A DNA stretch of 60,132 nt from an uncultured Nitrososphaerota archaeon (GTDB lineage: Archaea > Thermoproteota > Nitrososphaeria > Conexivisphaerales > DTJL01): contig CAWJIE010000008.1 of the NCBI GenBank assembly GCA_963842885.1, positions 1-60,132 of the forward strand, read 5' to 3'. Below, piece after piece: positions 6,950-50,996 of this stretch (position 1 is its first letter; the number at the start of each line of letters is the position of its first letter). Below the pieces are notes generated by a model. The model worked only from the letters and a program-made list of their open reading frames with translations, was not told where the DNA came from and searched no databases. Both the position numbers and the translations under genes were made by a program.

Positions 6950-7357
6950 ATGTTCGCCCGTGGCCCTCCCAAGGTCTACCTGAAGCTGAGGGAGGGCTTG
7001 ATGGCCGAGAGGGTCTTCGAAGGCCTCACTGGCGCAGGCCTCACCGGCTCTGGCGGCCTTGTCCTAGCGTTGCTCAGCGGAGACGTGCCCCAGGATTCCC
7101 GCACGTATTTGGAGATCGCCAGGCTTCTGAGGTACCACCGCGCGGGCAGGGTCGTGAGGATCACCGTGGCGGCCGCTGAGGGAGTCGCCGCGGCGGACTT
7201 CGGGGCCTTCGTCACACTCAGGTCCCTCGCCCAGCACGATCGATTCGTCGTCTGGCTGAAGGCCCGGAACAGGTCCGCTGAATACATCATAAGCAGGTCT
7301 GGGAAGGTCATTTCAAAAAAGGAGTCAGCGTCGGCAGCTCTGGACCAGTACGCCTAG
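6950..7357 (+). CDS. Hypothetical protein
   Basis: 135-aa ATG ORF with host-like GC, convergent on and overlapping the tbp stop. Confidence 0.55.
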   Translation: MFARGPPKVYLKLREGLMAERVFEGLTGAGLTGSGGLVLALLSGDVPQDSRTYLEIARLLRYHRAGRVVRITVAAAEGVAAADFGAFVTLRSLAQHDRFVVWLKARNRSAEYIISRSGKVISKKESASAALDQYA

Positions 7358-7911
7358 TAGATCATGAGCTCTTCGGCTTCGAGGAGAGTGTGAAGGTTGT
7401 TCACTGCCTTGTAGACTTCCTCTTCCTTCTTTGCTCCTGTGCAGACCAGCTTTCCGCTGGCGAAGAGGAGGATCACCGTCTTGGGCTCCAGCATCCGATG
7501 TATCAGGCCGGGGAACTGCTCGGGCTCGTACATGCTGCGCGGAAGGGTGAGCGCCGCCTCCTCCAGCTTGACGCGGCCTCCCAGACTCGCCGAAGCGACG
7601 ATGTTCTGGATCTCCACTTCGGCCTCGTTCTCCACCTTGATTCCCGATCTCCGGAGCTTCTGGACAACCATCACCACGGCCTTGCGGGATTGCTCTTCGC
7701 TCTTTGCTCCTGTGCACACCATCTTGCCGGAGTTGAAGATCAGCGTGGCGGTCTTCGGTGCCTTGAGGCGGAAGACCAGGCCCGGGAACTGCTCCGGGTG
7801 ATACTCCACATCTGGAAAGAGCCTCGTGATTTCGTTGAGATCGATCTTCTGGTTTACGCTTGCTGAAGCCACTACGTTCTCAATCGATATAAGAGGAGTG
7901 GTTTTCGGCAT
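7354..7911 (-). CDS. tbp: TATA-box-binding protein
   Basis: Two TBP repeats: IENVVAS..YHPEQFPGL..LIFNSGKMVCTGAK and IQNIVAS..YEPEQFPGL..LLFASGKLVCTGAK. Confidence 0.99.
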   Translation of the reverse strand: MPKTTPLISIENVVASASVNQKIDLNEITRLFPDVEYHPEQFPGLVFRLKAPKTATLIFNSGKMVCTGAKSEEQSRKAVVMVVQKLRRSGIKVENEAEVEIQNIVASASLGGRVKLEEAALTLPRSMYEPEQFPGLIHRMLEPKTVILLFASGKLVCTGAKKEEEVYKAVNNLHTLLEAEELMIY

Positions 7912-8977: not shown

Positions 8978-10081
8978 ATGATGGACAACCGCGCCGAAAG
9001 GGGTCGGATGATTGCGGAGACATTCGGACAGGTCAAGAGGCTTGACGAGACGACATACAAGGTTCGCTCTCAGACTTCAAGCGCAATCTACGAAGTGACA
9101 GGAACAGAAGCAGGTTGGGAGTGCAATTGCCCTGACTACAGGTTCAGGGCGATAACGTGCAAGCATATCTACGCGGTCAAGTTCTCTTTCGAGTTCAGGA
9201 AGGAGGTTCAGAGCGAAAGGGTCGTCGAGCCTGTCTCCGTCGAATCTTGTCTCTTTTGCGGTTCTCAGAAGTTGAAGAAGTCGGGGGTAAGGCACAACGC
9301 CAACGGAGACATTCAGAGGTTCGCCTGCCTCGACTGCCACAGGACTTTCAGCCTCAACATAGGCTTCGAAAAGATGAAGCACAACCCGCAGGCGATTACC
9401 TCGGCCATGCAACTCTACTTCAGCGGTGCGTCACTGAGGAAGACGGCTGACTCATTGAGGCTCTTGGGTTCGGATGTCTCTTACAAGACCGTCGAGCGAT
9501 GGATAACGAAATATGTCTCCTTGATGGATGGCTACGTCCAGAAGCTGCAGCCCAAGGTCTCCGACGCTTGGAGGGCTGACGAGATATTCGTCAAGTTCAG
9601 CGGGAAGATGGAATATGTCTTCGCGCTGATGGACGATGAGACTCGCTACTGGATCGCCCAACAGGTAGCCTCGACGAAGGGAATCTCCGATGTCAAGCCC
9701 ATGTTCTACGAAGGCGCGGTTATAGCTGGCAAGAACCCGAAGACGCTCATAACTGATGGAGCGCCTAACTATATAGACGGTGCGAGAGCATTTTGCAAGA
9801 ACGGACACCCGATAAACCACATAAGGGAGATTCGCCTTACCGGTCAGATACACAACAACAAGATGGAGAGAATGAACGGGGAGATAAGAGACAGGGAGAA
9901 GGTAATGCGAGGTTTGAAGGTCGAAGATACTCAAATCCTCGCAGGAGTCCAGCTATTTCACAACTACATCAAGCCACACGAAGCTCTGAATGGGAGAACC
10001 CCTGCCGAGGCTGCGGGGATTGTCGTGAAGGGAGAGAACAAGTGGCTGACGCTGATTCAGAATGCAAGTCTGTCTCAGTAA
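8978..10081 (+). CDS. IS6-family DDE transposase with N-terminal SWIM and zinc-ribbon domains
   Basis: SWIM CNCPD..CKH, CLFC..CLDC, HTH, WRADE / ITDG / NNKMERMNG catalytic motifs. Confidence 0.92.
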   Translation: MMDNRAERGRMIAETFGQVKRLDETTYKVRSQTSSAIYEVTGTEAGWECNCPDYRFRAITCKHIYAVKFSFEFRKEVQSERVVEPVSVESCLFCGSQKLKKSGVRHNANGDIQRFACLDCHRTFSLNIGFEKMKHNPQAITSAMQLYFSGASLRKTADSLRLLGSDVSYKTVERWITKYVSLMDGYVQKLQPKVSDAWRADEIFVKFSGKMEYVFALMDDETRYWIAQQVASTKGISDVKPMFYEGAVIAGKNPKTLITDGAPNYIDGARAFCKNGHPINHIREIRLTGQIHNNKMERMNGEIRDREKVMRGLKVEDTQILAGVQLFHNYIKPHEALNGRTPAEAAGIVVKGENKWLTLIQNASLSQ

Positions 10082-11818: not shown

Positions 11819-12307
11819 TCACGCTCTTCCCTTGTCAATTCTCGGCCGCTGAGCAGACTGGGGTTCCTTCAACAACTCTGGGTGTTTTCTTCCCAAGACC
11901 ATAGAGCATACCTTGATTGCCTCATCTGCGGCTTTCATCCCATCTTCCCGTTTCTTTTCGTCAGCAAACAAGGTGGTGAATTCCTCACCAGAAAAGTGAA
12001 ATAACTTGTTTCTCTTCAGTTGAAGAGGGCGAATCGTTCTATACTCGACGTTGGTTATTACTTTGAGATGTTTGAGCGTGACAATCTTCCAATCGAAACG
12101 CACTTGAGACAACAAATCGAAGAACAAGTCTGAAATTGGGTCGGCGGCAGGAAGACGAAAGATATCCCAGACGAACAGGTCAACCAAACCTTCAACATAG
12201 CCCCAGCTGGCCAGCATGTATTCTCCAAACAGCCCTTTGCGCCTCAGTTCGAATAAGTCGAGAGCCACTCGAGACTTGGACTCACTCAATTCTCTCCACA
12301 CTCGCAT
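11819..12307 (-). CDS. HEPN-like protein (RxxxxH motif)
   Basis: Helical protein with YVE near the N-terminus and KRNKLFH. Confidence 0.6.
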   Translation of the reverse strand: MRVWRELSESKSRVALDLFELRRKGLFGEYMLASWGYVEGLVDLFVWDIFRLPAADPISDLFFDLLSQVRFDWKIVTLKHLKVITNVEYRTIRPLQLKRNKLFHFSGEEFTTLFADEKKREDGMKAADEAIKVCSMVLGRKHPELLKEPQSAQRPRIDKGRA

Positions 12308-12725
12308 TCTGTATCAATGTCAGCCACTCATTCTCTGCCTCGGCCTTAATCCCTGCTGCCTCGGCTGGGGTCTTCCCGTCCAACGCCATGTGAGGGCGAA
12401 TGAAGTTGTGGAAGACCTGCATCCCTGTCAGGATTGCGGTATCTTCGTTCTTCAAACCTCTCATGACCTTCTCCCTGTCTCTAATCTCCCCATTCATCCG
12501 TTCCATCTTGTTGTTGTGAACCTTTCCCGTCAGCCTGATTTCCCGAATGTGGGTAACTCTCTGATGCGGAGTTGAGAAAGCCCTTGCTCCGTCGATGTAG
12601 TTGGGCGCACCGTCCGTAATCAAGACCCTCGGATTCTTCCCCGCTATCTCTGCACCCTCGAAGAACATGGGCTTGACATCATCAATCCCCTTCTGAGTGG
12701 CTACCTGCTGGGCGGTCCAGAAGCG
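12282..12725 (-). pseudogene. C-terminal fragment of an IS6-family transposase
   Basis: Close match to the C-terminal ~145 aa of the 8978 transposase (ITDGAPNYIDGARAF, HIREIRLTG, NNKMERMNGEIRDREKVMRGLK); N-terminus missing. Confidence 0.9.
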
Positions 12726-12755
12726 CTTCTGGAGGATCATCGCCTGGACTTGGAC

Positions 12756-21968: not shown

Positions 21969-22210
21969 CTCGGGCCTCTCTAATCATGAGCGCGCCGGCA
22001 ACCACAGATCTCTCCCCCATTCATAGTCGCCTCGAAGGGGTAGCAGGATTCCGTCGTAAGACCGAGTATTCATGGCCCTAGTCGCGCCTGAAACGCCACG
22101 TCCGATATCATAATTGAATAATATGCAAGTATATACGCAGCCGCCGGCAAACATATTATAAATACTCTAATCGACTATGTTTATATTCTCGAAGAGTGAG
22201 ATTATAACTT

Positions 22211-22807
22211 ATGTCGGGACTCTCTTGGTGGGACTCACATAAGCAGTCGTTCGTGTACGAACGCATACTGAGCCTGCCTGAGGGGAAGCGCATCTTCGAG
22301 TGCATGCAGTGCGGGACCTGCGGCGGCTCCTGTCCGGTGAGTTTCGCGATGGACGTCACTCCGAGGCAGATCATCAACCTCGTGAGGGCAGGAAGGGTGG
22401 AGGAGGCTCTGCGCAGCGACACCATCTGGCTGTGCGCATCCTGCTACAACTGCACCGCCCAATGTCCCGCCGGCATCAAGATAACCGACGTCATGTACAC
22501 GCTGAAGGTGGCCTCCACCGAGCTGGGGATTTATCACAAGAACTCGATGGGCCCCATCTTCGCCAAGACGATGGTGAAGCAGCTCGAAAAGAACGGCCGC
22601 ATAGCCGAGGTTCAGCTCATACTCGGCGTCGCGGTGCACAAGCTGAGCCTTCTCACCACCTTGAACCCCATCATCTACCTGAAGCTTTTCCGGGCGGGCC
22701 GGGTGAAGCTCGTGGGCGAGAAGGTCAAGAACATGGACCAGTTGAAGAAGATGAACGGATGGCTCATAGCTAGCGACTTCTCGCTGGAGGAGAAGGACCG
22801 CGTATGA
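22211..22807 (+). CDS. hdrC: Heterodisulfide reductase subunit C
   Basis: CMQCGTCGGSCP and WLCASCYNCTAQCP. Confidence 0.92.
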   Translation: MSGLSWWDSHKQSFVYERILSLPEGKRIFECMQCGTCGGSCPVSFAMDVTPRQIINLVRAGRVEEALRSDTIWLCASCYNCTAQCPAGIKITDVMYTLKVASTELGIYHKNSMGPIFAKTMVKQLEKNGRIAEVQLILGVAVHKLSLLTTLNPIIYLKLFRAGRVKLVGEKVKNMDQLKKMNGWLIASDFSLEEKDRV

Positions 22808-23676
22808 ACAGCTACCAGTTCTTCCCTGGTTGCTCCCTCCAGGGGTTCAACACGGCATACTATCGTAGTGCCATCGCCCTCGGTGACCTCATCGGCTACA
22901 AGCTTGACGAGATCGAGGACTGGAACTGCTGCGGCGCGACGGCCTACTTCTCCATCTCTGAGGAGAGGACCTTCCTGGCCAACGCCCGCAATCTCGCCAT
23001 CGCCGAGAAGAAGTCCAACGAGCTCACCGTGGCTTGCGGAGCATGCTTTGCCTCTCTGTCCAAGGCGGCGCAGTACTACAAGGATTCGCGCAAGCTCGCC
23101 TTCCTCATGGACAACGCCCTGAAGGAGGTGGGGCTCATGTACGACGGGAAGGTGAAGGTGCGCCACCTCCTCGAAGTCGTATTCAACGAGTACTCCATGG
23201 AGGAGATGGCTCGCAAGGTCGTCAGGCCCTTAAAGGGGATCAAGATGGCGCCGTACTACGGCTGCATGATCTTCCGCCCCGTTCCCGCGCCCATCCCCCG
23301 GGACGCCCTGGAGCAGCTCATCCGGCTGTCGGGCGGCGACGCCATCGACTTCTGGGCCAAGGACCAGTGCTGCGGCGGCATGCTCGTCAACAACAGGCCA
23401 GACGTGGGCCTGCAGTTGGTGAAGGTGCTGCTTTCGGAGATCCAGCAGAAGGGCGCCCAGCTCATTATAACGACCTGCCCGCTCTGCCAGGTCAACCTCG
23501 AGCTTTACCAAGGAGCCGTCAACAAGAAGTTCGGCACGGACTTCAAGATCCCGGTCATCTACTTCACGCAGATGCTGGGCTACTCGATGGGCGCGTCTCC
23601 GAAGGAGCTCATGCTGGGCAGCGAGCTGCTGAGCAGCCTGCCCGTGCTGCGGAGTGCGGAGTTGACCAAGTCTTGA
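22804..23676 (+). CDS. hdrB: Heterodisulfide reductase subunit B
   Basis: Two CCG domains: PGC..NCCG..CGAC and YYGC..QCCG..CPLC. Confidence 0.93.
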   Translation: MNSYQFFPGCSLQGFNTAYYRSAIALGDLIGYKLDEIEDWNCCGATAYFSISEERTFLANARNLAIAEKKSNELTVACGACFASLSKAAQYYKDSRKLAFLMDNALKEVGLMYDGKVKVRHLLEVVFNEYSMEEMARKVVRPLKGIKMAPYYGCMIFRPVPAPIPRDALEQLIRLSGGDAIDFWAKDQCCGGMLVNNRPDVGLQLVKVLLSEIQQKGAQLIITTCPLCQVNLELYQGAVNKKFGTDFKIPVIYFTQMLGYSMGASPKELMLGSELLSSLPVLRSAELTKS

Positions 23677-25629
23677 GAATAGGCGTCTACATCTGCCACT
23701 GCGGCACCAACATCGCCGGCGTCGTCGACGTCGGCAAAGTCACCGAGTACGCCGCTACGCTCCCCAACGTCGCCGTGGCCCGCGACTACAAATACATGTG
23801 CAGCGAGCCGGGCCAGAACCTGATTCAGGACGACATTCGCCAGTTCAAGCTCGACGGGGTGGTGGTGGCCGCCTGCTCCCCGACCATGCACGAGCCCACG
23901 TTCCAGACCGCCGTGTCGAGGGCGGGGATGAACCCATACATGTTCCAGATGGCAAGCATCCGAGAGCACGTCTCATGGGTGACCGTCGACAGTCGTCGAG
24001 GCCACAGAGAAGGCCAAGAAGCTGGTCGAGGCCGCCGTCTTCAGGGTGAGCCTCCAGGAGCCCCTCGAGAAGAGGAGGATCCCTGTCAAGCAATCCGTCC
24101 TGGTCGTAGGCGGAGGAATAGCCGGCATCGAAGCGGCCCTCAAGTGCGCCGACGCGGGAAAGAAGGTCTACCTGGTCGAGAAGGAGCCCAGCATCGGCGG
24201 CCACATGGCAATGTTCGACAAGACCTTCCCAACGCTGGACTGCTCGCAGTGCATACTCACACCGAAGATGGTGGAGGTCGTCCGCAACGAGAACATCGAG
24301 CTGCTCGACTACTCCGAAGTCAAGGAGATCTCCGGCCACGTTGGCGACTTCAAGGTCTCGGTCGTCAGGAAGCCCAGGTACGTGGACTCGTCAAAGTGTA
24401 CGGGCTGCGCGATCTGCTCCACCAAGTGCCCTGGGAAGGCCCCCGACGAGTTCAACCTGGGCATGACCAAGAGGAAGGCCATCTACATCCCGTTCCCTCA
24501 GGCCGTACCGCTCAAGGCCGTCATAGACAGGGAGTCCTGCCTCTACTTCCAGAAGAACATCTGCAAGGTCTGCGTCAAGTTCTGCACCGCGGGTGCCGTG
24601 GACTTCGACCAGAAGCCGGAGGAGCTCGAGCTAGACGTGGGCGCCGTCATACTCGCCACAGGATTCAAGCCCTTCGACGCGAAGAGGGTCCCTGAATACG
24701 GATACGGGAAGTTCCCCAACGTCATCACCTCCCTTGAATTCGAGAGGATGACCTCCTCTTCCGGGCCCACCGGCGGCAAGCTCGTCCTCAAGGATGGCAG
24801 GGAGCCCGAAAGCGTGGCCATCATCCACTGCGTAGGGAGCAGGAACGTCAACCACAACGTCTACTGCTCTAAGATATGCTGCATGCAGAGCCTCAAGCAC
24901 GCCCATCTCCTCAAGGAGCACATCCCCGGAGTCGCCGTCTACGAATTCTTCATCGACATGAGGGCGGCAGGGAAGGGCTACGAGGAGTTCTACAAGCGCG
25001 TAATGGGCGAGGGGACGATAATGATCAGGGGAAGACCGGCGTACGTCACCGACGTCCCGTCCAAGCCCGAGGAGAAGGGGAAACTGGTCCTCGTGGCAGA
25101 GGACACGATCCTTTCATCGATCATGCGCTATCCAGTCGACATGGTGATCCTGAGCATCGGCCTCGAGGCCGGCGAAGACGCGAAGGAGCTGGCCCACGCC
25201 TTCACCTGTTCTCGGACAGGCGACGGCTTCTTCTTGGAGAAGCATCCCAAGCTGGCCCCTGTCTCGACCCCGACCGCAGGAGTGTTCATCGCCGGAGCCT
25301 GCCAGGGCCCTAAGGACATCCCCGACTCCGTCGCCCAGGCGGGCGCCGCCGCCGCCGAAGCCCTGGCCATGATGGGGAAGGGATACTTCGAACTCGAGCC
25401 GTACGTGGCCCGGGTGAACGAAGACCTGTGCTCAGGCTGCGGCATATGCCTGAACCTCTGCCCCTACAACGCACTGGAGCGCGTCGCCGAGACGGGGCTG
25501 ACGAAGGTCGTGGAGGCCCTGTGCCAGGGTTGCGGCGCCTGCGTCGCCGCCTGCCCGGCCAACGCCCTGGACCTTGACGGTTACAAGACGAAACAGGTCG
25601 CTGCGGAGCTGGAGGGGATCCTCGCTTGA
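23673..25629 (+). CDS. hdrA: Heterodisulfide reductase subunit A (frameshift near 23991)
   Basis: TTG start RIGVYICHCG, ACSP, GGGIAG, DKTFPTLDC, ferredoxin insert, HCVGSR..YCSKICC, GPKDIP, C-terminal 2x[4Fe-4S]. Confidence 0.93.
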
Positions 25630-26057
25630 GCGAGCAGCCGAAGGTCAAGATCGTGGCCCTCCTCTGCCGCTGGTGCTCCTACGCGGGGGCGGATCTCGCG
25701 GGCGTAAGCAGGACGAAGTATTCGCCAAACGTCCTCGCCATTAAGGTGCTCTGCAGCGCGAGGATGGACCCCCAACTGGTGCTGAAGGCGTTCTCCGAGG
25801 GGGCCGACGGCGTCCTCTTGGCGGGCTGCCATCCCGGGGACTGCCATTACCTGAAGGGGAATTACAAGGCCCTGAGGAGGTTCGGCCTCTTGAAGAAGTT
25901 CGTCGCCCAGATGGGGATCGAGGACGAAAGGCTGAGGCTCGAATGGATATCCGCCAGCGAAGGGAGCCGCTATGCCGAGGTCGTCAACGACATGACGTCG
26001 AAGGTGGCCCGGCTAGGTCCCTTGAACTGGATGAGGGAGATACAGATTGAAGCCTAA
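25626..26057 (+). CDS. mvhD: Methyl-viologen-reducing hydrogenase subunit D
   Basis: CRWCSY.GAD, CSAR, GCHPGDCHY, WISASEG. Confidence 0.95.
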   Translation: MSEQPKVKIVALLCRWCSYAGADLAGVSRTKYSPNVLAIKVLCSARMDPQLVLKAFSEGADGVLLAGCHPGDCHYLKGNYKALRRFGLLKKFVAQMGIEDERLRLEWISASEGSRYAEVVNDMTSKVARLGPLNWMREIQIEA

Positions 26058-27015
26058 GGTCGTCGCAAAGCCGAAGGTGGCCATAGCTCTGGGCGCCACC
26101 TGTTCCGGCTGCGACTATTCGTTGCTTGACCTGGGCGCCGGCCTCCTGGACGTGACGGACAGCGTGGAGATCGTCTATTGGCCCACCGCGATAGACTCCA
26201 AGCTCGAGGACCTCCAGGCCATCCCCGACGGAGGGGTCGACCTGATCCTGTTCGATGGTGCCGTCGTCAACGAGGACAACTTGGAGATGGCGCGCCTATG
26301 CAGGAGGAAGGCCAAGATGCTGGCGGCCTTCGGAAGCTGCGGCGCCTACGGCGGCATCCCGGGCCTCATCAACACCGGCAGCCCGAAGAAGATCCTCCTC
26401 GAGGTGTACCAGGACCTGCCGTCGCGATCCGACAAGGCCGAGCCTCTCCGCTTCGAAGGGGAGGATGCCCTTCCCAAGATGCTGGGACAGGCTTACGCGC
26501 TGGACCAGGTGGTAGACGTCGACGTCTACCTCCCCGGTTGCCCCCCTCCTCTCAAGCTAGTCGCGAACCTCTTCACCGACGTCCTGGCCGGGAAGGAGAT
26601 CCCCAAGGGGACCTACTACGCCTCGAACAGGGCCGTCTGCTACGAGTGCAAGAGGGTTAAGGAGAACAAGGACATAGTCGCCCTCCACCGTTACCATGAG
26701 ATACAGCCTGACGCGACGCGCTGCCTCCTTGAGCAGGGTATCGTATGCCTCGGTCCCGCTACGAGGGGAGGCTGCGACGCCGTGTGTTGCACACAGAACC
26801 AGCCGTGCAGGGGCTGTCTGGGGCCGCTCCCTAACTCGGTCGACAGCGGCTCGGAGATGATGTCCGCCCTCGCATCGGTCATGTCGCTCGACGACGAGAA
26901 CAAGGATGCCGACTATACTGGCATCTTCGACGGGCTCAACGATACGCTCGGCTCGTTCTACATGTTCACATTGCCTAAGAGCATACTGGGAAGGAGGAAG
27001 GTGGACCAAGGTTGA
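26047..27015 (+). CDS. mvhG: [NiFe] hydrogenase small subunit
   Basis: CSGC, GSCG..GG, PGCPP, VCYEC, CLLEQG..CLGPATRGGC..C..CRGC. Confidence 0.92.
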   Translation: MKPKVVAKPKVAIALGATCSGCDYSLLDLGAGLLDVTDSVEIVYWPTAIDSKLEDLQAIPDGGVDLILFDGAVVNEDNLEMARLCRRKAKMLAAFGSCGAYGGIPGLINTGSPKKILLEVYQDLPSRSDKAEPLRFEGEDALPKMLGQAYALDQVVDVDVYLPGCPPPLKLVANLFTDVLAGKEIPKGTYYASNRAVCYECKRVKENKDIVALHRYHEIQPDATRCLLEQGIVCLGPATRGGCDAVCCTQNQPCRGCLGPLPNSVDSGSEMMSALASVMSLDDENKDADYTGIFDGLNDTLGSFYMFTLPKSILGRRKVDQG

Positions 27016-28469
27016 AGAGGATAGTCATCAACCCGGCGACGAGGCTGGAGGGCCACGCCAAGATAGCCATAATCATGGACGACAAGGGAGAGGTGCAGGA
27101 CGCGCTCTTCCAGACGGTCGAATTCAAAGGCTTCGAGGGCTTCTGCCTGGGTCGGAACGCCGAGGAGCTTCCCGTCATCACCAGCAGGATATGTGGCGTC
27201 TGCCCCTGGGCCCACCACATGGCTTCGGTCAAGGCCACTGATGCCCTATTCAGCGCGCCTCCGCCGCCCACCGCGCTCAAGGTCAGGGAGCTGGCATACA
27301 ACGCCTTCATGGTACACGACCATTCGGCCGTCTTCTATGCGCTGGCGGCCCCCGACCTGCTCCTGGACCCGGACACGCCCAGGGCTCAGAGGAACATTCT
27401 CGAGCTCGTGAAGAGGATCGGAAGGGACACGGGCGCGAAGGTCCTCACCCTAAGGAAGGCCGCCGCGGACATCCTCACCATCGTCGGAGGGAGGGCCACG
27501 CATCCAATATTCGGCTGCCCCGGTGGCATCTCAAGAGGTCTGACGCCAGAGGACATCGCCAACATCAAGGAGAGGAGCCGCCAGCTGGTCGACCTGGCGG
27601 AGCTGACCAACAAGGTCTTCGAAGACAGCGTGGCGAGCAAGAAGGAGTTCGTGGACCTCTTCAACACCGATGCCTTCGTCAACAGGTCCTACTACGCTTC
27701 GCTGGTGGGCAGGGACGGGCGCATCAGCTTCCTCGACGGAGACGTCAGGGTGATAAGACCCGACGGCTCGACGTTCGAGGAGTTCAAGCCCGAGTCCTAC
27801 CTCGATCACTTCGAGGAGGCCTCCCTCCCCTGGACCTACATGAAGTTCCCATATCTGAAGAATGTGGGCTGGAAGGGCCTCCGTGAGGGCGAGGACAGCG
27901 GGGTCTACAGGGTGGGGCCGCTGGCACGGTTCAACGTAGCCAAAGGGTTCTCCACGCCGAAGGCACAGGGTAAGTTCGAGCTATTCAAGGAGACCCTGGG
28001 CAGCCCCGCGCACCAGACGCTGGCGTACCAATGGGCCAGGGTCATCGAGATCCTTCACGCCGCCGAAAGGGTGACCGAGCTGGCGGACGACGCAGAGCTG
28101 GGCGGAAAGGAGATCAGGTCCCCGCTGGGAAAGATCGGCGAAGGGGTGGGTGTCGTGGAGGCCCCCAGGGGGCTCTTGATCCACCACTACAAGGCCGACG
28201 AGCGCGGGGTCGTTACTTTCGTCAACCTCATCGTCCCCTCCACGCACAACAACTCCGGCATCTGCCTGTCCGTCAAGAAGGCAGCACAGCATCTCATCAA
28301 GGGGACGGAGATCCCCGAGCCAGTGTTCAACCGCGTGGAGATGCTCTACAGGGCCTATGACCCATGCCTCGCCTGCGGGACCCACAGCCTCCCGGGCTCC
28401 ATGCCTATGAAGTTCGAGCTCTATGACTCCTCGGGAAGGCTCTTGAAGGCCGAGGCCAGAGGCCTCTAG
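27012..28469 (+). CDS. mvhA: [NiFe] hydrogenase large subunit (group 3c context)
   Basis: TRLEGH, L1 RICGVC, EAPRG, L2 DPCLACGTH with C-terminal extension. Confidence 0.95.
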   Translation: MKRIVINPATRLEGHAKIAIIMDDKGEVQDALFQTVEFKGFEGFCLGRNAEELPVITSRICGVCPWAHHMASVKATDALFSAPPPPTALKVRELAYNAFMVHDHSAVFYALAAPDLLLDPDTPRAQRNILELVKRIGRDTGAKVLTLRKAAADILTIVGGRATHPIFGCPGGISRGLTPEDIANIKERSRQLVDLAELTNKVFEDSVASKKEFVDLFNTDAFVNRSYYASLVGRDGRISFLDGDVRVIRPDGSTFEEFKPESYLDHFEEASLPWTYMKFPYLKNVGWKGLREGEDSGVYRVGPLARFNVAKGFSTPKAQGKFELFKETLGSPAHQTLAYQWARVIEILHAAERVTELADDAELGGKEIRSPLGKIGEGVGVVEAPRGLLIHHYKADERGVVTFVNLIVPSTHNNSGICLSVKKAAQHLIKGTEIPEPVFNRVEMLYRAYDPCLACGTHSLPGSMPMKFELYDSSGRLLKAEARGL

Positions 28470-28475
28470 GCGGCC

Positions 28476-28943
28476 TTGACCCACAAGCTAGCCGTGGCAT
28501 GCCTCGGAAACCCCATACTAGGCGACGACGCTTTCGGTCTGCTCGTAGCCAAAGAGCTGGAGGGCATGGCCGGAGCCGACGTGCTTAGCCTGGAGGGAGG
28601 GGGGCTGGACGTGGCTCTGAAGCTCATCCCCTACTCCCAGGTTTTGGTCATCGACGCCATCGAGACGGCCGACGGCAAGGTCGGCGAAATCGTCTCACTC
28701 ACCGTCGACGAGCTTGCCTCCCTGAAGGGGCTCGAAGGACACGCCCTGAGCCTCGCCCAAGCCCTGGAGGCCCTCCGGCTCCTTTCCGGGGACGGCCCCC
28801 GCACCGTGGAGATTCTGGCCTGCAGGATAAGGCCAGTCGAGGCATACGGAGAGGCTATCAGCCCGGCGGTACGGTCTGCGGTCCGCCGCTGCGCCAAGAT
28901 GGCAAGAAGCTGGGTCCTGAAGAGGGTGCCGCGAAACCTTTAG
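28476..28943 (+). CDS. Hydrogenase maturation protease
   Basis: LGNPILGDDAFG, IDA, H motifs. Confidence 0.88.
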   Translation: MTHKLAVACLGNPILGDDAFGLLVAKELEGMAGADVLSLEGGGLDVALKLIPYSQVLVIDAIETADGKVGEIVSLTVDELASLKGLEGHALSLAQALEALRLLSGDGPRTVEILACRIRPVEAYGEAISPAVRSAVRRCAKMARSWVLKRVPRNL

Positions 28944-28971
28944 CTAAAGCCTCCACAATCCCGTCTCCGAT

Positions 28972-29460
28972 GTGAGAGTCGAGGGGAAAGTCCTAATCCT
29001 TGGCTGCGGGAACGTCCTTCTCGGCGACGACGGCTTCGGCCCTGCTGTAGCCGCCCGATGCCGCCGCTTCAAGCTCGGCGACTCCATCGTTGCGCTGGAC
29101 GTAGGCACTCAGCTGAGCCCTTTGACGATGGATCTCCTCTATGGCGATGAGAAACCCATCGGCTTGATAATCTTGGACGCTGCCGACGGCGGACGCAGAC
29201 CGGGCGACGTCTTTCGGGTTTCCCTCGACGACCTCGGTAGGAGGAAGACGGACACGTTCGGCCTCCACGACTTCCCATCCGTCTCCGTGTTCAAGGAACT
29301 CGAGATGTCGAAAGGGACCAGGACCGAGATAATAGCCTGCCAGCCTGCGCTGGGGATGGACATTGTCGGGATCGGTCTGTCGAAGGAGGTGAGAGAGGCC
29401 ATCCCGAAAGCGGCAAAGATGGCTGTGATTAGGGCACGTCAGATGGCCCGCGTGGACTAG
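28972..29460 (+). CDS. Second hydrogenase maturation protease
   Basis: GCGNVLLGDDGFG, LDAAD, LH, CQP. Confidence 0.9.
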   Translation: MRVEGKVLILGCGNVLLGDDGFGPAVAARCRRFKLGDSIVALDVGTQLSPLTMDLLYGDEKPIGLIILDAADGGRRPGDVFRVSLDDLGRRKTDTFGLHDFPSVSVFKELEMSKGTRTEIIACQPALGMDIVGIGLSKEVREAIPKAAKMAVIRARQMARVD

Positions 29461-29559
29461 GCTCTGAAGGCGCATCTCTGGCCTCCGTAACCCTATAATC
29501 GGCTTATTAGGCTGTTTATAACCTGCTCCGTCGCGGCACATGGCTGGGCGAGGAGGCAA

Positions 29560-35518: not shown

Positions 35519-35860
35519 CTAGGAGGAGGTCTCCTGCTCGGGTATCTTCTTCAGCTTGACCACCGGCCCCACGGCCACGAAGACGATGGCGACTCCTGAC
35601 AAGGCCGCCTCCACGAGGATGGTGCTCTGAAGCCCTATGAACTCCCCCAGGATGCTCCCGACGAACAGCCCGAGGGTGGGGAAGGGAAGGAACGTCAGCC
35701 CGATGAAGACCCCGATCTGGAACGGATTGGCGGCGAAGAGCTTGATGGCTATGGTGGGGATGGCTATCCTCGACACTTGTGTCAGGAACTGGCTGAATGT
35801 GTCGCCGGTCCAGAACTTCAGGAAGTCGCGGTGGTGCTAGAGCTTCCCCTGCAGACGCAA
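35519..35860 (-). pseudogene. MFS transporter remnant: nonsense codon plus internal deletion
   Basis: GKL*HHRDFLKFWTGDTFSQF (TM1-2) joined directly to a last-two-TM-like segment GSILGEFIGLQSTIL..PVVKLKKIPE. Confidence 0.75.
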
Positions 35861-35981
35861 GTTGCACCCACAGTCTCCGGTGGGCTATCTGAATCTTGGT
35901 CATAGCCGGCCATGGCGTGCTCTACGTAAGAAACAGTAGCCCGGACCGACCGGAGCAGAGAGCACTCTACGCCGACTGACG

Positions 35982-36093
35982 TGGAGGTGGGGGTGGGACT
36001 TCCCGCCGCCCTGTGCCCGGAGGCCAGGCGCGGCTCTTGAACCCACGTGGACTCGCTCTGCAGGCGAGTTCGTAACCGCTCCGACACCCCACC
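35982..36093 (-). tRNA. tRNA-Cys(GCA) with a 37-nt intron at position 59/60 (35999..36035); CCA encoded
   Basis: Acceptor GGTGGGG/CCCCACC, anticodon arm CTCGC-CTGCAGA-GCGAG, T stem GTGGG/CCCAC, U73, BHB-like junction, TTTTAATTA box about 28 nt upstream. Confidence 0.93.
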
Positions 36094-36155
36094 TGCGGTG
36101 CAACCCTACGCATAGCAAGCTAATTAAAAGTTGCGTGATAGTCCGGAAACGGGCT

Positions 36156-37031
36156 CTACTTCATCCTGTTTACGTCCTTGATGAACTTCACTATGGCGGA
36201 GTAGTCCCTGTCGCCATATCCCATGTTGTAGGCGCCCAGGTAGCTGCTCCTTACCTGCTGAAGGAGCGGCAGGAAGACCTTCATCTCCTCCGCCGTCTGG
36301 TCCGTCAGGTCCAGGTCCTTGAGCATGTGCCGGAGGTAGAGGGTGGGCTCCAGGCTATCCTTGACCATTTTCATTGCCTTGATCTCGCTGAAGCTCGTCT
36401 TGAACCCGGTTGAGTTGACTATCTGCACGAACAGGGAGGGGTCCAGGCCCGCCTTCTCGACGAGGACAGACCCTTCCGCCATGGACTGGGCATAGCTGGC
36501 CGTCAGGTGGTTGAGGGCCAGCTTGATGTACATCGCGCCGGGGACCGGGCCGATGTAGAAGACCTTCGAGGCGAACGTCTTGAGGATGTCCAGGTTCTCC
36601 TCGTAGCGAGTCCTGTCGCCGGAGACGAGGGCGACGAGCTCCCCCGTCTTGGCCTGGATGGGCCCGCCGACCAGGGGGACCTCGAGGTAGTTGATGTTCT
36701 TCCTGCGCAGCTTCTCCATTATCCTCTTCGACGTCGAGGGGAGGATGTCGCTGCAGTTGATGATGGTCTTCCCCGCCGCGATTCTTTCGTACATACCCTG
36801 AGAGGAGAACATCACGTCCTCCACAGCCGTCGTATCGGACACGGCGATGACGATCGAGTCGGCCAACTCGGCGACGTCTCGCTGCGAACTGACCATCTCC
36901 GCCTTACCTCTGAGAGCGTCCTGCTTGGCCTTGGTCCTGTTATAGGCCACGAGAGAGAAGCCCGACTGCACGATCCTTCCCGCGATGGGCAGGCCCATGT
37001 TTCCAAGGCCAATCAAACCTACTTTCCTCAA
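36156..37031 (-). CDS. Beta-hydroxyacid dehydrogenase (3-hydroxyisobutyrate/tartronate semialdehyde reductase family)
   Basis: GLIGLGNMG, YNRT, PLVGG, KLALN, KDL. Confidence 0.9.
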   Translation of the reverse strand: MRKVGLIGLGNMGLPIAGRIVQSGFSLVAYNRTKAKQDALRGKAEMVSSQRDVAELADSIVIAVSDTTAVEDVMFSSQGMYERIAAGKTIINCSDILPSTSKRIMEKLRRKNINYLEVPLVGGPIQAKTGELVALVSGDRTRYEENLDILKTFASKVFYIGPVPGAMYIKLALNHLTASYAQSMAEGSVLVEKAGLDPSLFVQIVNSTGFKTSFSEIKAMKMVKDSLEPTLYLRHMLKDLDLTDQTAEEMKVFLPLLQQVRSSYLGAYNMGYGDRDYSAIVKFIKDVNRMK

Positions 37032-44932: not shown

Positions 44933-45637
44933 ATGCCGAGAAGCGCTACTAAACCCAAGTCCACGAAGAAGGCGACCCCGAAGCCCCGACGCAAGAGCAA
45001 GCCTTTGCAGCCCAAAGCAGACACGGCGGCGGAAGGGGCCCTGCAGACCGAAATCACCCAGACCATGCCCACCGCTATCCAGGCCCTGCCTGAAGTGATC
45101 GAGCCTACAGCGGAGACGGTGGAGGTCAGACCGGAGGAAGCCAGGCCTGAGATCGCGCCCGAGGAGGCGCCGCCTGCCCAGCCGGAGGTCGTGCCCGAGC
45201 TGGCGCTTGCCCCTCAGCCAGTCGTGCCCGTCGTCGAAATGGTAGAAGCGCCTCCCGCCACAGAGCCTCCCACAACCCTTCCGCCCGAGCCTTCTGGGAG
45301 CGAGGCCGAACAAGAGGAGCCAGGCGAAACGGCCATAGGCGAGGAGCTACCGCCCAGGCTGAGCGTTCCGCCGAATCACATGTTCATTGGGAAGAAGCCG
45401 GTCATGGGCTACGCTCTTTCCGCCGTGATGCAGCTCACTCAGTACGAGGAGGTTGTGCTCAGGGCAAGGGGGAAGGCCATCTCAAGGGCAGTCGACGTGG
45501 CCGAGGTTATAATGCACAGGCTGGGCAAGGGCCAGTTCGTCGCTCGATACATCAAGATAGACACGGATATCGTGGGAGAGGGCGCTGAGAAGCGCAACGT
45601 CTCGACGATAGAGATAGGCGTGGGCAGGAGAACTTGA
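44933..45637 (+). CDS. albA: Alba chromatin protein with long disordered N-terminus
   Basis: IGKKPVMGY, ARGKAISRAVDVAE, RNVSTIEI. Confidence 0.9.
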   Translation: MPRSATKPKSTKKATPKPRRKSKPLQPKADTAAEGALQTEITQTMPTAIQALPEVIEPTAETVEVRPEEARPEIAPEEAPPAQPEVVPELALAPQPVVPVVEMVEAPPATEPPTTLPPEPSGSEAEQEEPGETAIGEELPPRLSVPPNHMFIGKKPVMGYALSAVMQLTQYEEVVLRARGKAISRAVDVAEVIMHRLGKGQFVARYIKIDTDIVGEGAEKRNVSTIEIGVGRRT

Positions 45638-47030: not shown

Positions 47031-48234
47031 ATGACGAATGTATTGACCGTTGAAAGGGACTCGGCGACGTCGGTGGAGAAGCATCCCACCGAATTCGTCG
47101 AGAGAAAGGGCAAGGGGCATCCAGACACCATCTGCGACAGGGCGGCCGAGGAGCTCAGCATCGCCTTGAGCAAGTACTACATGGAGGACTGCGGGCACAT
47201 ACTTCATCATAACCTGGACAAGTGCGTCCTCGTGGGCGGCCAGTCAGATGCGAGGTTCGGTGGCGGGGAGGTGTTGGAGCCTATCTACCTCCTCCTAGTC
47301 GGGCGGGCCACCGTCAACGGGAATGGTGCCCTGAAGAAGCCGGTCCCCCTGGGCACGCTCGTCCAAAGGACGACCAAGGGCTGGATGAAGGAATCCTTCC
47401 CGACCCTCGACGTGGAGACCCAGCTGATAGTCGACTACCGCATCAAGCAGGGAAGCTCCGACCTCGTCGGCAACTATAACGCGTCCCACATCCCCAGAAG
47501 CAACGACACCAGCTTCGGCGTCGCCTTCGCCCCTATGTCGGAGACGGAGACGTTGGTGTACGAGACCGAGCAGCTCCTCAACTCGACGAAGTTCAAGAAT
47601 GAGTTCCCGGCCGTCGGGGCCGACGTCAAGGTGATGGGCTTGCGGCGCGGGGAAACGATCAAGCTGACCGTCGCAGCCGCCATCGTCTCAAAGGAGGTGG
47701 ACAACGCAGCCGACTATCTGGCCGTGAAGAATGAGGTCGTGGGGAAGATTAAGGAGCATTCGGCCGGTTTCACCAATCGCGAGGTGCTCGTGGATCTCAA
47801 CGCCGCCGACGATGCCTCTAGGGGGGTGTTCTACCTCACGGTCACCGGTCTCAGCGCCGAGCAGGGCGACGACGGCCAGGTGGGACGAGGGAACAGGGCC
47901 AACGGTCTCATAACGCCCTTCCGGCCCATGACCCTGGAGGCGACCACTGGCAAGAACCCGACCAGCCATGTAGGGAAGATCTACCAGGTGGCGTCACGCC
48001 AGGTGGTTGACAGGATAGTCGAGGAGCTCCCGGACCTTGAGCAGGTGTACTGCTACATGCTCAGCCAGATAGGGAAGCCAGTGAACGAGCCCCAGTGTGT
48101 CCATGTCCGCGCGTTCGGGTCCGTTGGCGAAGACAGGGTGAGACGCGTCGCCGAACCCATCGTGGAGCAAGCCCTAAAAGACATCCCCAATCTCTGGGAA
48201 GGGTCTAGTGCAGGGGAAGTTCAGGCTGTACTAG
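47031..48234 (+). CDS. mat: Archaeal S-adenosylmethionine synthetase (1-nt frameshift near 48201 in the last codons)
   Basis: [42 protein letters not shown]; corrected end [11 protein letters not shown]. Confidence 0.95.
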
Positions 48235-48352
48235 GCCGCCGAGCAGTTCGGCATTTGATGGCACGCCGGCGATGCGGCGTGCCTTCGTGCTATTTTGGTG
48301 ATAGCCTATTATACGTCGAGCCTGAAACCTTTCAGCATCGGCAGTGGTCTCG

Positions 48353-48739
48353 ATGAGGTATAGATTGATGGACATACTGGCCTGCCCCATCTGCAAGGCC
48401 TTCCCGCTGGAGCTCCTGGTCTTAGACGCGACCAAGGGGGAACAGAAGCACAGAGACAAGGTGGGATGCGAGCTCTACTGCGTCTACAACGGCGGTACCA
48501 TAGACCACATGGTCAAGACTGAGCTCGTTAAGGACTGTGAGATTTGCTTCAGCTATGACCTCAGAGAGGCCCTCCTGACGTGCAAGAAGTGCGGGCGCTG
48601 GTACCCCGTCATGGACAGCATCCCCCACATGCTTCCCGATGACCTGAGGAAGGAGGTCGAGGACAAGCAGTTCCTAGTCAAGCATGCGGAAAAGATACCT
48701 GAACGAGTGAAGAAGGAAGGCCTTCCCTTTCACCTTTGA
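48353..48739 (+). CDS. trm112: Trm112 family methyltransferase activator
   Basis: LMDILACPICK..L.L and CKKCGRWYPV..IPHMLPD. Confidence 0.88.
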   Translation: MRYRLMDILACPICKAFPLELLVLDATKGEQKHRDKVGCELYCVYNGGTIDHMVKTELVKDCEICFSYDLREALLTCKKCGRWYPVMDSIPHMLPDDLRKEVEDKQFLVKHAEKIPERVKKEGLPFHL

Positions 48740-49579: not shown

Positions 49580-50914
49580 TTAAAGGGTATGCTGGCCTCT
49601 GCGTTGTTTGAGTGTGATCGTGGCATTGGCCAGGCTCACGAGCTCGAGCCCCTCCTCAAGATCAGCCGTCTCCACCACGGAGGACCTCCTCTGCCTGGCT
49701 GTTCCCAGGGCAAGCTCCTCGACCGCGTTCCCCAGCCTCGAGCCGAAGCCCGAGAGGAACTTCGGCGCCTTGAACTTCTTGAGTTGTTCGGTCATGGCAT
49801 CAGGGAGCTCCGTCTCCATCACTTCGGACCCCAGTGTGGCCTGCAGGGCTCCCTTGGCCTCCTGCGCCGACGGCATGCCGGTTTCGACCGCTGCGTCGAG
49901 GGCCCTCTTGTCGGAGGCCTGAGGCATCCTTATGGCTAGGTCGATGAGGCCCATGAAGTCGGGGTCCAGGATCGGGGCATCCAGCTTGTCGGGCATCCAA
50001 AGGTTGAAGATGAATCTCGCCCTGACGTTGACCTCGGTCCTCTTGTTGTCATAGATGATCTTCGTCCTCCGTGTGGCTAGCAGGTCGAGGAGGATACGCC
50101 TCTCTTCTGGCGTGGCCTTCTCGAAATCGTCGATTATGACGACGCCGCCGTTCCCATTCAGCGCGATCTGCTCCTGCATCTCCCCTGGGGTGTTCCCCCC
50201 GCACAGGACATGGGCCGAAACCGGCGTGAATTCGTCCAGGAAGCTCCTCGTGAGGCTCCTGTTGTATGCCTCCTTGTCCCACAGCACCATCATGTTCAAC
50301 CTGTCACTGGACAGCATCTTCAGGTAGATCCTGCTCAGGAGCCTCAGCCCGTCGAGCGATTTCGTCCTCTCCTCGAGTTCCCCCATGAAGGTGTCGAGGG
50401 GCCATCGGGCCTCGCTCATCGGGGCCTCGCTGAGGACGGTCGCAGTCCTGACCTTCAACGCGCTCCTCAACTGCAATGCGTTGTTGCGGTACTCCATCCA
50501 CTGGGCCATCCCGAACTTCATCTGCTCAGGCTTCAGCCTGAAAAGCACCTCGTAAGCGTCCTGCCTCTCCCTCAGCTCTACGTCCACGTAGAGGTCGTAG
50601 ATCCCGAGCCTGCCTTCGAGGGCGTTCCTCGACGCGAGCCCGTCGTACGTCTTCTGGCAGGTCACTCGTATCGCGCCGGGGGTGACGTCCACCGATGTCA
50701 CGATTTCATCGGCCACGACGGCCCTGGCGTAGAGGACCCATGTGGAGAACGGCTCCCCCAATATCCGAAATCGCGGGTCGTACGGGTCGGTCCTCGCAAG
50801 GTCGGCCATGGTCCTCACGCCTTGCTCCTCCAGGAGCCTTCTGGAAAGGGACCCGAGTCCCGGCACTCTGAGCGGGGTGGAGGATCCGGTACCGTCGGCC
50901 TGGGTGTTGCCCAT
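49580..50914 (-). CDS. Degenerate MCM-like AAA+ protein with N-terminal HhH-like domain
   Basis: VPGLG..LEEQGV.T..DLA N-terminus; GGVVIIDDFEK, VNVRAR, IDL, SRL..LA...AR.R....V...D..E follow the MCM motif order; Walker A and Arg finger absent. Confidence 0.7.
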   Translation of the reverse strand: MGNTQADGTGSSTPLRVPGLGSLSRRLLEEQGVRTMADLARTDPYDPRFRILGEPFSTWVLYARAVVADEIVTSVDVTPGAIRVTCQKTYDGLASRNALEGRLGIYDLYVDVELRERQDAYEVLFRLKPEQMKFGMAQWMEYRNNALQLRSALKVRTATVLSEAPMSEARWPLDTFMGELEERTKSLDGLRLLSRIYLKMLSSDRLNMMVLWDKEAYNRSLTRSFLDEFTPVSAHVLCGGNTPGEMQEQIALNGNGGVVIIDDFEKATPEERRILLDLLATRRTKIIYDNKRTEVNVRARFIFNLWMPDKLDAPILDPDFMGLIDLAIRMPQASDKRALDAAVETGMPSAQEAKGALQATLGSEVMETELPDAMTEQLKKFKAPKFLSGFGSRLGNAVEELALGTARQRRSSVVETADLEEGLELVSLANATITLKQRRGQHTL

Positions 50915-50996
50915 TTAGAGCGCCTTACATCGAGATGTCGATAGGGGGTTTAGAGACCCGGAGTCTTGAGAAGTTCACATCGGGGTCAAGCCGGTT

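Follow-up and report, generated by a model that had tools for sequence, protein, structure and literature searches.

Most archaea carry out replication with a single homohexameric MCM helicase, and to our knowledge few regulators of the archaeal enzyme have been described. The subject of this work is a gene located at positions 49,580–50,914, on the reverse strand, of a 60,132-nucleotide stretch of DNA from an uncultured Nitrososphaerota archaeon (contig CAWJIE010000008.1 of assembly GCA_963842885.1; the whole stretch analysed is hereafter called the window), whose product is very probably a pseudo-ATPase derived from MCM. The gene consists of 444 codons plus a stop, with an intact reading frame and a GC content (0.615) that matches its surroundings. 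Its product combines an inactive, MCM-derived AAA+ region with a non-MCM N-terminus that contains a new conserved module. No description of the family was found in the literature that was covered, subscription-only papers and supplements falling outside it; an earlier, sequence-only reading of the window (the first-pass annotation) had likewise called the protein undescribed.

The replicative MCM (PF00493 + PF17855) has an AAA+ core and lid homologous to those of this protein, with the same succession of secondary-structure elements, including the pre-sensor-1 β-hairpin, and the sensor-2 arginine is common to it and the window protein. In contrast, the Walker A motif, the Walker B glutamate, the SRF finger, the helix-2 insert, the Zn finger, detectable A and OB subdomains, and the C-terminal winged helix of the replicative helicase are all lacking here. 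An inactive MCM homologue is known from the archaeon Methanopyrus kandleri, where MCM2 (PDB 3F8T) possesses an unconserved Walker A motif and internal deletions (PMC2933578). MkMCM2 is described with the usual layout of an MCM, N-terminal subdomains being followed by AAA+ (PMC4619765), whereas the N-terminal third of the window protein is unrelated to MCM. Profiles of the family described below do match MkMCM2 (E 9.6e-11 with profile A2 and 9.9e-8 with a profile of the divergent subgroup; rank 50 in a Foldseek search with a poor first model), but it is no closer to the family than are the active MCMs, which score better.

Eukaryotes also provide examples. For the ATPase domains of MCMDC2 and of Drosophila MEI-218 (which is found with MEI-217), neither binding nor hydrolysis of ATP is predicted, and these proteins act together with an active MCM-family protein (PMC6553819). 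They occur in eukaryotes and are specific to meiosis, and an MCM-type N-domain is retained in MCMDC2 (PMC6553819); their likeness to the window protein is one of description only. Finally, BcMCM of a Bacillus cereus prophage joins an MCM AAA+ region to a non-MCM N-terminus, as does the protein described here; BcMCM is, however, reported to be biochemically active with a primase-like N-terminus, while the window protein is a chromosomally encoded pseudo-ATPase with a helix-hairpin-helix (HhH)-like N-terminus.

An MCM-derived core and lid

Residues ~170–437 of the window protein are derived from the replicative helicase MCM, namely from its AAA+ core and its lid. The first-pass annotation had aligned the protein to archaeal MCM on the basis of short motifs, and every string that it quoted lies where it was placed (VPGLG at residues 17–21, LNMMVLWDKEAYNRS at 206–220, VVIIDDFEK at 258–266, VNVR at 295–298, and MGLIDL at 321–326). 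That alignment was itself reproduced by hhalign. When the full family profile (A3, 22 sequences) was compared with a profile of six annotated MCMs from plasmids (A6), the two were aligned over 331 columns with a probability of 98.5% and an E-value of 3.7e-15, and residues 169–444 alone gave a probability of 98.7% and an E-value of 1.9e-16 over 259 columns.

Searches of the PDB point in the same direction. With a diverse profile of the family (A2), 135 sequences were matched at E ≤ 10, the best 60 of the 135 were all MCM-family proteins, and the best match had an E-value of 4.8e-13, with query residues ~243–437 covered. With the profile of the divergent subgroup, 60 of 60 matches at E ≤ 0.001 belonged to the MCM family, headed by SsoMCM (E 1.1e-14). 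The window sequence by itself produced one weak PDB match, 8q67_A, a "DNA helicase" (E 0.021), and since it is barely detectable alone, the case for MCM leans on profiles that include the divergent relatives. This is also evident from curated families. The window protein has no NCBIfam family and no Pfam match above cut-off (AAA_5, E 0.037; DUF4332, E 0.12; IMS_HHH_1, E 0.13), yet among 15 family members examined, five matched the Pfam MCM_lid (PF17855) at E ≤ 10, and two of these, P0017 (28.8 bits) and P0018 (29.9 bits), passed the cut-off of 27.4 bits. The MCM P-loop domain (PF00493) was matched in one of the 15, below threshold (P0017, E 0.013). Although the window protein is without a Pfam lid match, its residues 392–437 align with the lids of MCM3 and MCM7. 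Moreover, a tblastn search of plasmids with P0018 matched 14 records, and in 11 of these the match coincides with an annotated MCM gene. In a PHROGs search P0017 was the single protein matched, to a "DNA helicase" family. The window protein had no PHROGs or PADLOC match, and PADLOC gave no matches for four members.

Structural comparison led to the same result. An AlphaFold (AF2) model built from 22 family sequences reached a mean predicted local distance difference test score (pLDDT) of 86 and a predicted template modelling score (pTM) of 0.60; it draws on only 22 sequences, and a pTM of this size leaves the relative orientation of the predicted domains open. All 36 rows listed by Foldseek against the PDB were chains of MCM2-7/CMG or SsoMCM, with a best E-value of 3.2e-11; these replace the output of an earlier, poor model (11 close homologues, pLDDT 54). 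The first-pass annotation had named a better structural match to another AAA+ clade, such as MoxR or a chelatase, as the outcome that would speak against MCM, and the Foldseek and PDB profile searches returned MCM instead. A viral structure library yielded weaker and mixed matches, comprising unnamed proteins, MoxR-like ATPases and primase-helicases (best E 1.4e-9), and these modelled likenesses lend no support to a viral origin. An MCM of a mobile element is as plausible an ancestor as a duplicated host MCM, the origin implied where the first-pass annotation speaks of a paralog.

The AAA+ core (residues 172–330; 49,925–50,401, on the reverse strand, as are all features of this gene) is thus assigned by hhalign, PDB profile searches and Foldseek, and within it the working catalytic motifs have been lost. 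The definitions of the MCM motifs, including the helix-2 insert, follow PMC4619765. In the hhalign alignment, strand 1 and the P-loop remnant are represented by LNMMVLWDKEAYNRS (residues 206–220; 50,255–50,299), where W212-D-K-E-A-Y-N218 is aligned with G-D-P-S-V-G-K of Walker A; the first glycine has become W212 and the lysine N218, R219 is a one-residue insertion, and S220 is aligned with the Walker A serine. Neither of the P-loop patterns GxxxxGK[ST] and GxxGxxK[ST] occurs anywhere in the sequences of the 26 full-length family members. In the Walker B remnant VVIIDDFEK (residues 258–266; 50,117–50,143), D262-D263 is aligned with D-E, so that DD replaces DE, as it does in 19 of the 26 members (DE is kept in two, and five have other residues). 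At the site of the MCM "SRF" arginine finger, occupied by MGLIDL (residues 321–326; 49,937–49,954), G322-L323-I324 is aligned with S-R-F and the finger arginine is replaced by leucine; no member has arginine in this column, P0012 having SQF and P0019 SKF. The losses of Walker A, the Walker B glutamate and the arginine finger that had been proposed in the first-pass annotation are therefore borne out by both the alignment and the 26-member count.

Other parts of the MCM plan have been retained. The pre-sensor-1 β-hairpin (residues 283–296; 50,027–50,068) is present in the pLDDT-86 model as strands 283–288 and 291–296, ahead of strand 300–306. The MCM-type lid (residues 331–437; 49,604–49,924) is assigned by alignment and by the Pfam matches of P0017 and P0018. 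The earlier claim that the sensor-2 arginine is kept holds for the window protein, whose R393 (49,736–49,738) is aligned with the arginine of the MCM "T-A/T-R-x-L-E" helix, but not for the family, of which 13 of 26 members keep the residue; since it is not conserved family-wide, it is unlikely to be the functional core. The helix-2 insert, suspected from the outset to be deleted, is missing as a 16-column query gap in the hhalign alignment, and helix 243–254 is unbroken and without a hairpin in the model. A C-terminal winged helix is also absent, as the protein stops seven residues past the lid.

Divergent members of the family preserve remnants of the ancestral motifs, including "GEPSSPAKS" (P0017 and P0023), "GPSIGAKT" (P0018), "LLSQFDL" (P0012) and "LLSKFPL" (P0019). 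Because the motifs are lost across all 26 members and MCM-like remnants occur in divergent ones, the inactivation is considered ancient and family-wide. The fold has been stripped of catalytic and DNA-translocating elements: glycines and the lysine are missing from the P-loop and the glutamate from Walker B, and the trans-acting arginine finger, the helix-2 insert and the winged helix are gone as well. The protein therefore cannot work as an MCM-type motor. The AAA+ core and the MCM-type lid are present, and most of the other defining features of a functional MCM are not; the protein is therefore classed as MCM-derived rather than as an MCM.

A new N-terminal domain in a small family

The N-terminal domain of MCM consists of a helical A, a Zn-binding B and an OB-fold C subdomain, and the first-pass annotation had proposed that the OB/Zn portion has been replaced. 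This is upheld by the comparisons made here. Residues 1–168 showed no significant similarity to the MCM N-domain in hhalign (21 columns, probability 0.3%, E 0.19), neither the A nor the OB subdomain was detectable by sequence profile, and a Zn finger is absent because the whole protein contains only two cysteines, C86 and C238. One candidate OB remnant, ADEIVTSVDVTPGAIRVT (residues 64–88; 50,651–50,725), was paired in the full-length alignment with "L.DD.v..v.PGD.VTV" at the end of the OB fold of MCM, residues 64–85 falling on the last OB strands. It was rejected because, tested alone, it gave the same probability of 0.3% and E-value of 0.19.

In place of the MCM N-domain, residues ~14–160 define a new conserved domain without a family assignment. 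Its first part, an HhH-like module (residues 14–70; 50,705–50,875), is delimited by sub-threshold Pfam matches, model helices and conservation. It possesses a VPGLG hairpin at residues 17–21, the family-invariant L39 A40 .. P44 Y45, and a second hairpin-like L52-G53-E54-P55, and the model places four helices (residues 22–30, 36–41, 47–52 and 55–71) around the two hairpin-like turns, a pattern that would be compatible with HhH. Five HhH-type Pfam families (HHH_5, IMS_HHH_1, DUF4332, DNA_pol_lambd_f and Cdd1) match within residues 3–45, each below threshold; the best of these, HHH_5, was seen in three of 15 members at residues 5–37, reaching an E-value of 0.0012 and 19.7 bits in P0015 against a cut-off of 27. 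The HhH-like N-terminus suggested in the first-pass annotation is therefore a candidate that falls short of a Pfam assignment. We take the PGxG hairpin, the helices and a second hairpin-like turn of this module to recur in HHH_5-type (HhH)2 domains, the one at the N-terminus of RadA/Rad51 among them, but the invariant "LA..PY" of the family could not be assigned to a known HhH family. HhH-type modules are mostly DNA-binding.

The second part (residues 71–160; 50,435–50,704), recognized from the model and from invariant columns, is an α/β domain predicted to run strand-strand-helix-strand-strand, followed by a long helix (residues 136–160) that carries the invariant W139, Y142 and A146. No usable match was found in the ESM Atlas for residues 1–165 or 70–165, and the search of cluster representatives described below brought up no relatives of this part outside the family either. 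A linker (residues 161–171; 50,402–50,434) then connects the two halves; it is poorly conserved (majority fraction 0.40) and modelled with low confidence, residues 159–168 having a pLDDT below 50 in the model from 22 sequences.

The N-terminal third is the most constrained portion of the protein. Seventeen columns are invariant in all 26 members, and 15 of them lie within residues 39–146. Similarly, identity of at least 80% is reached at 65 positions, of which 48 fall within residues 1–160 and 26 within residues 1–70. Among divergent members, identity amounts to 37–58% in the N-terminal third, 17–39% in the AAA+ part and 19–23% in the lid.

The family itself is small. A word-indexed search found 10 relatives of 409–444 amino acids with 53–92% identity to the window protein, all annotated simply as "hypothetical protein", one of them under the name of a Conexivisphaerales archaeon. 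A profile of these relatives, run against 1.84 billion cluster representatives, retrieved 12 clusters at E ≤ 0.001 (lengths 91–455 amino acids), a number upon which the judgement of a small family is based, and at HMMER sensitivity no fusion of either half of the protein to other domains was seen among the same representatives. When the family profile was used in the word-indexed homologue search, family members were returned and no MCMs. Two further searches brought the collection of full-length proteins to 26; the scan of genome contigs that yielded relatives used two peptide patterns, which detect close relatives only. Of the named members, P0007, P0027, L001 and L002 belong to Conexivisphaerales, an order within the phylum Nitrososphaerota, and L003 is labelled "uncultured Nitrososphaerales archaeon". 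A tree of the family has three groups, namely the clade that holds the window protein (support 96/97), a second group with 32–42% identity to it, and a third, long-branched group (support 100/99) with 24–28% identity.

Selection, genomic setting and possible roles

The gene is not a relic, and purifying selection on it is as strong as on the neighbouring ileS. Ratios of nonsynonymous to synonymous substitution (dN/dS), calculated by the Nei-Gojobori method for the window gene against three orthologues, were 0.13–0.19 for the whole gene and 0.06–0.10 for residues 12–160, as compared with 0.12–0.175 for ileS and 0.16–0.25 for an inositol-monophosphatase (IMPase)-family gene, all of which are rough values because dS is saturated (>1). 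With 26 members known and dN/dS in this range, the possibility of a strain-specific relic, raised in the first-pass annotation as a potential refutation, finds no support. Its description of the gene as an intact open reading frame (ORF) following ileS among core genes is also accurate. The gene lies directly downstream of ileS with an 82-bp spacer, and the IMPase-family gene lies a 34-bp spacer away on the same strand; the other neighbours are of a housekeeping nature as well, including Trm112, S-adenosylmethionine (SAM) synthetase, a CBS-HTH regulator, Alba and thymidine kinase. Thirteen neighbours from the window were queried in related genomes; L001 has all 13, L002 has 12, and L003, where the contig stops inside ileS, has 10. 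No canonical MCM or other replication gene occurs within the 60,132-nt window.

The spacer between ileS and the gene contains CTCTAAACC (50,947–50,955, reverse strand), a block that is invariant across the aligned spacers of four genomes and in which the T of TAAA stands 38 nt ahead of the start codon in all four. From its sequence, CTCTAAACC is a possible TATA-like promoter element. A second invariant block, CTTGAC (50,985–50,990, reverse strand), is located 6–7 nt past the ileS stop codon in the same four genomes.

Taken as a whole, the best explanation, and one that we consider reasonably probable, is that the gene encodes a pseudo-ATPase that has been kept by selection in Conexivisphaerales and serves as an ATP-independent adaptor for DNA or a partner. 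A non-enzymatic role, in binding or as a scaffold, is probable; the adaptor mechanism as such is put forward tentatively, as a conceivable rather than a likely one. The protein would act without ATP hydrolysis, its conserved N-terminal module would be the working end, binding duplex DNA (via the HhH-like part) or a partner, and the dead AAA+/lid body would form a folded scaffold that could self-associate or dock on another AAA+ ring, for which the replicative MCM would be a natural candidate. Such a mechanism would, by analogy, parallel that of the inactive MCMDC2 and MEI-218, which act alongside an active MCM.

A more specific proposal, and a distinctly less likely one, is that the protein is an order-wide accessory subunit of the replicative helicase, docking on the MCM ring through its AAA+/lid faces with the HhH-like module on DNA. 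Since it would supply no arginine finger, the neighbouring ATP site would be silenced, and the N-terminal module might hold the helicase on duplex DNA or load it there. If true, the protein would be an independently evolved archaeal counterpart of inactive eukaryotic MCM partners like MCMDC2, and it might even take the place of a loader or brake not otherwise known from the lineage. MCM-BP may, we presume, be another such eukaryotic partner. More broadly, a pseudo-MCM under selection would provide a handle on how the archaeal MCM ring is loaded, restrained or chaperoned, and would add an independent example of the eukaryotic route, in which inactive MCM relatives occur beside active ones. Even if unrelated to the function of MCM, the protein would still illustrate cleanly how an AAA+ motor can become a scaffold.

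Several observations weigh against an adaptor that touches DNA or MCM. The protein is acidic, with an isoelectric point (pI) of 5.4 overall, 5.1 for the AAA+ part and 4.9 for the lid; the net charge of the HhH-like stretch is approximately zero, and residues 71–160 alone are basic (pI 8.9). The HhH assignment lies under every curated cut-off, the sensor-2 arginine is only partially conserved, and K291 and R292 at the tip of the pre-sensor-1 hairpin are invariant in the window clade only. The predicted domain arrangement and the saturated dS have been mentioned above, and the neighbouring genes are silent on replication. Finally, we infer DNA binding, self-assembly and docking to MCM, all of them putative, from sequence, a predicted structure and analogy.

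The main rival is a role unrelated to replication, which we regard as somewhat doubtful. Under this alternative, the protein would be a non-enzymatic scaffold outside replication and MCM, serving for instance in regulation or assembly within RNA metabolism or translation, with the MCM-derived fold as its structural body and the N-terminal module binding RNA or protein. The tight placement of the gene between ileS and the IMPase-family gene, near Trm112 and SAM synthetase, in an arrangement conserved in three genomes, would fit such a role, as would the acidic AAA+ and lid parts and the lack of a replication gene in the window. However, housekeeping gene order is weak functional evidence in archaea, the conserved TATA-like block upstream suggests that the gene has its own promoter, and the family hints from the N-terminus are solely of the mostly DNA-binding HhH type. 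The adaptor reading is also challenged, though with very little force, by the idea of an active NTPase with a non-canonical site (for example N218-R219-S220 and D262-D263) that a partner subunit might complete in trans. It draws on the good conservation of N-R-[ST] at Walker A, a basic residue in column 219 of 24 of the 26 members, an acidic one in column 262 of all 26, and the K-[ST] kept at Walker A by four members. Against this stand the absence from every member of both the glycine-rich loop that wraps the phosphate and the arginine finger, the presence of a catalytic glutamate in only two, and the location of the ATPase region in the less constrained half of the protein.

Two further alternatives dispute the identity of the protein rather than its role. 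Membership of a different AAA+ clade that has a pre-sensor-1 hairpin (MoxR/AAA_5 or Mg-chelatase), with a likeness to MCM at the level of the clade only, is highly improbable. AAA_5 was matched below threshold in three of 15 members (best E 0.0029), and MoxR-like phage proteins occur among the weaker viral fold matches; those AAA_5 (PF07728) matches nevertheless reached 14.5–18.1 bits against a cut-off of 22, while the Mg_chelatase, AAA_3 and Sigma54 models had no match at E ≤ 10 in the 15 members. Moreover, the listed PDB profile and Foldseek PDB matches are MCM-family throughout, with no MoxR, chelatase or sigma-54 protein among them, the MCM_lid model passes its cut-off in two relatives, and remnants such as GEPSSPAKS and LLSQFDL are specific to MCM. 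Likewise, the loss of all catalytic motifs and the commonness of MCM genes on archaeal plasmids would suit a functionless leftover in decay, from a duplicated MCM or one carried by a mobile element, but this idea has been all but refuted: every one of the 26 full-length members has an uninterrupted reading frame, dN/dS matches the low values of ileS, synteny is conserved, the composition is native, the window protein has no PHROGs or PADLOC match, and its flanks are free of mobile-element genes.

Other features of the window

The first 13,000 positions of the window differ from the remainder in composition, with a GC content of 0.49–0.57 as opposed to ~0.61 elsewhere. This segment includes an IS240-type DDE transposase ORF with a SWIM finger (8,978–10,081, forward strand), a transposase fragment (12,282–12,740, reverse strand) and a gene for the TATA-binding protein (7,354–7,911, reverse strand), and may be of foreign origin or rich in insertions. 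A tRNA-Cys (gca) was called by ARAGORN at 36,019–36,094 (reverse strand), although Rfam returned nothing at gathering score in the whole window and nothing at E ≤ 1 in positions 35,850–36,250. Within positions 22,200–29,500 (forward strand), a heterodisulfide-reductase-like cluster of ferredoxin, CCG-domain and pyridine-nucleotide-disulphide oxidoreductase genes is followed by the small and large subunits of a NiFe-hydrogenase and two HycI-type maturation proteases.

Two ORFs in the vicinity of the gene also deserve mention. The SAM synthetase ORF (47,031–48,356, forward strand; 441 amino acids) overlaps the start of the Trm112 ORF. In L001 its tblastn match extends over residues 1–396, which leaves the final ~45 without a counterpart there. 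SAM synthetase is absent from the locus in L002 and L003, in which Trm112 and the CBS-HTH gene are adjacent. Finally, the Alba-domain ORF (44,933–45,637, forward strand; 234 amino acids) is conserved in related genomes only from residue ~135 to 233, with the Pfam domain at residues 148–207, and its true start is probably well downstream of the listed one, judging from this pattern of sequence conservation.

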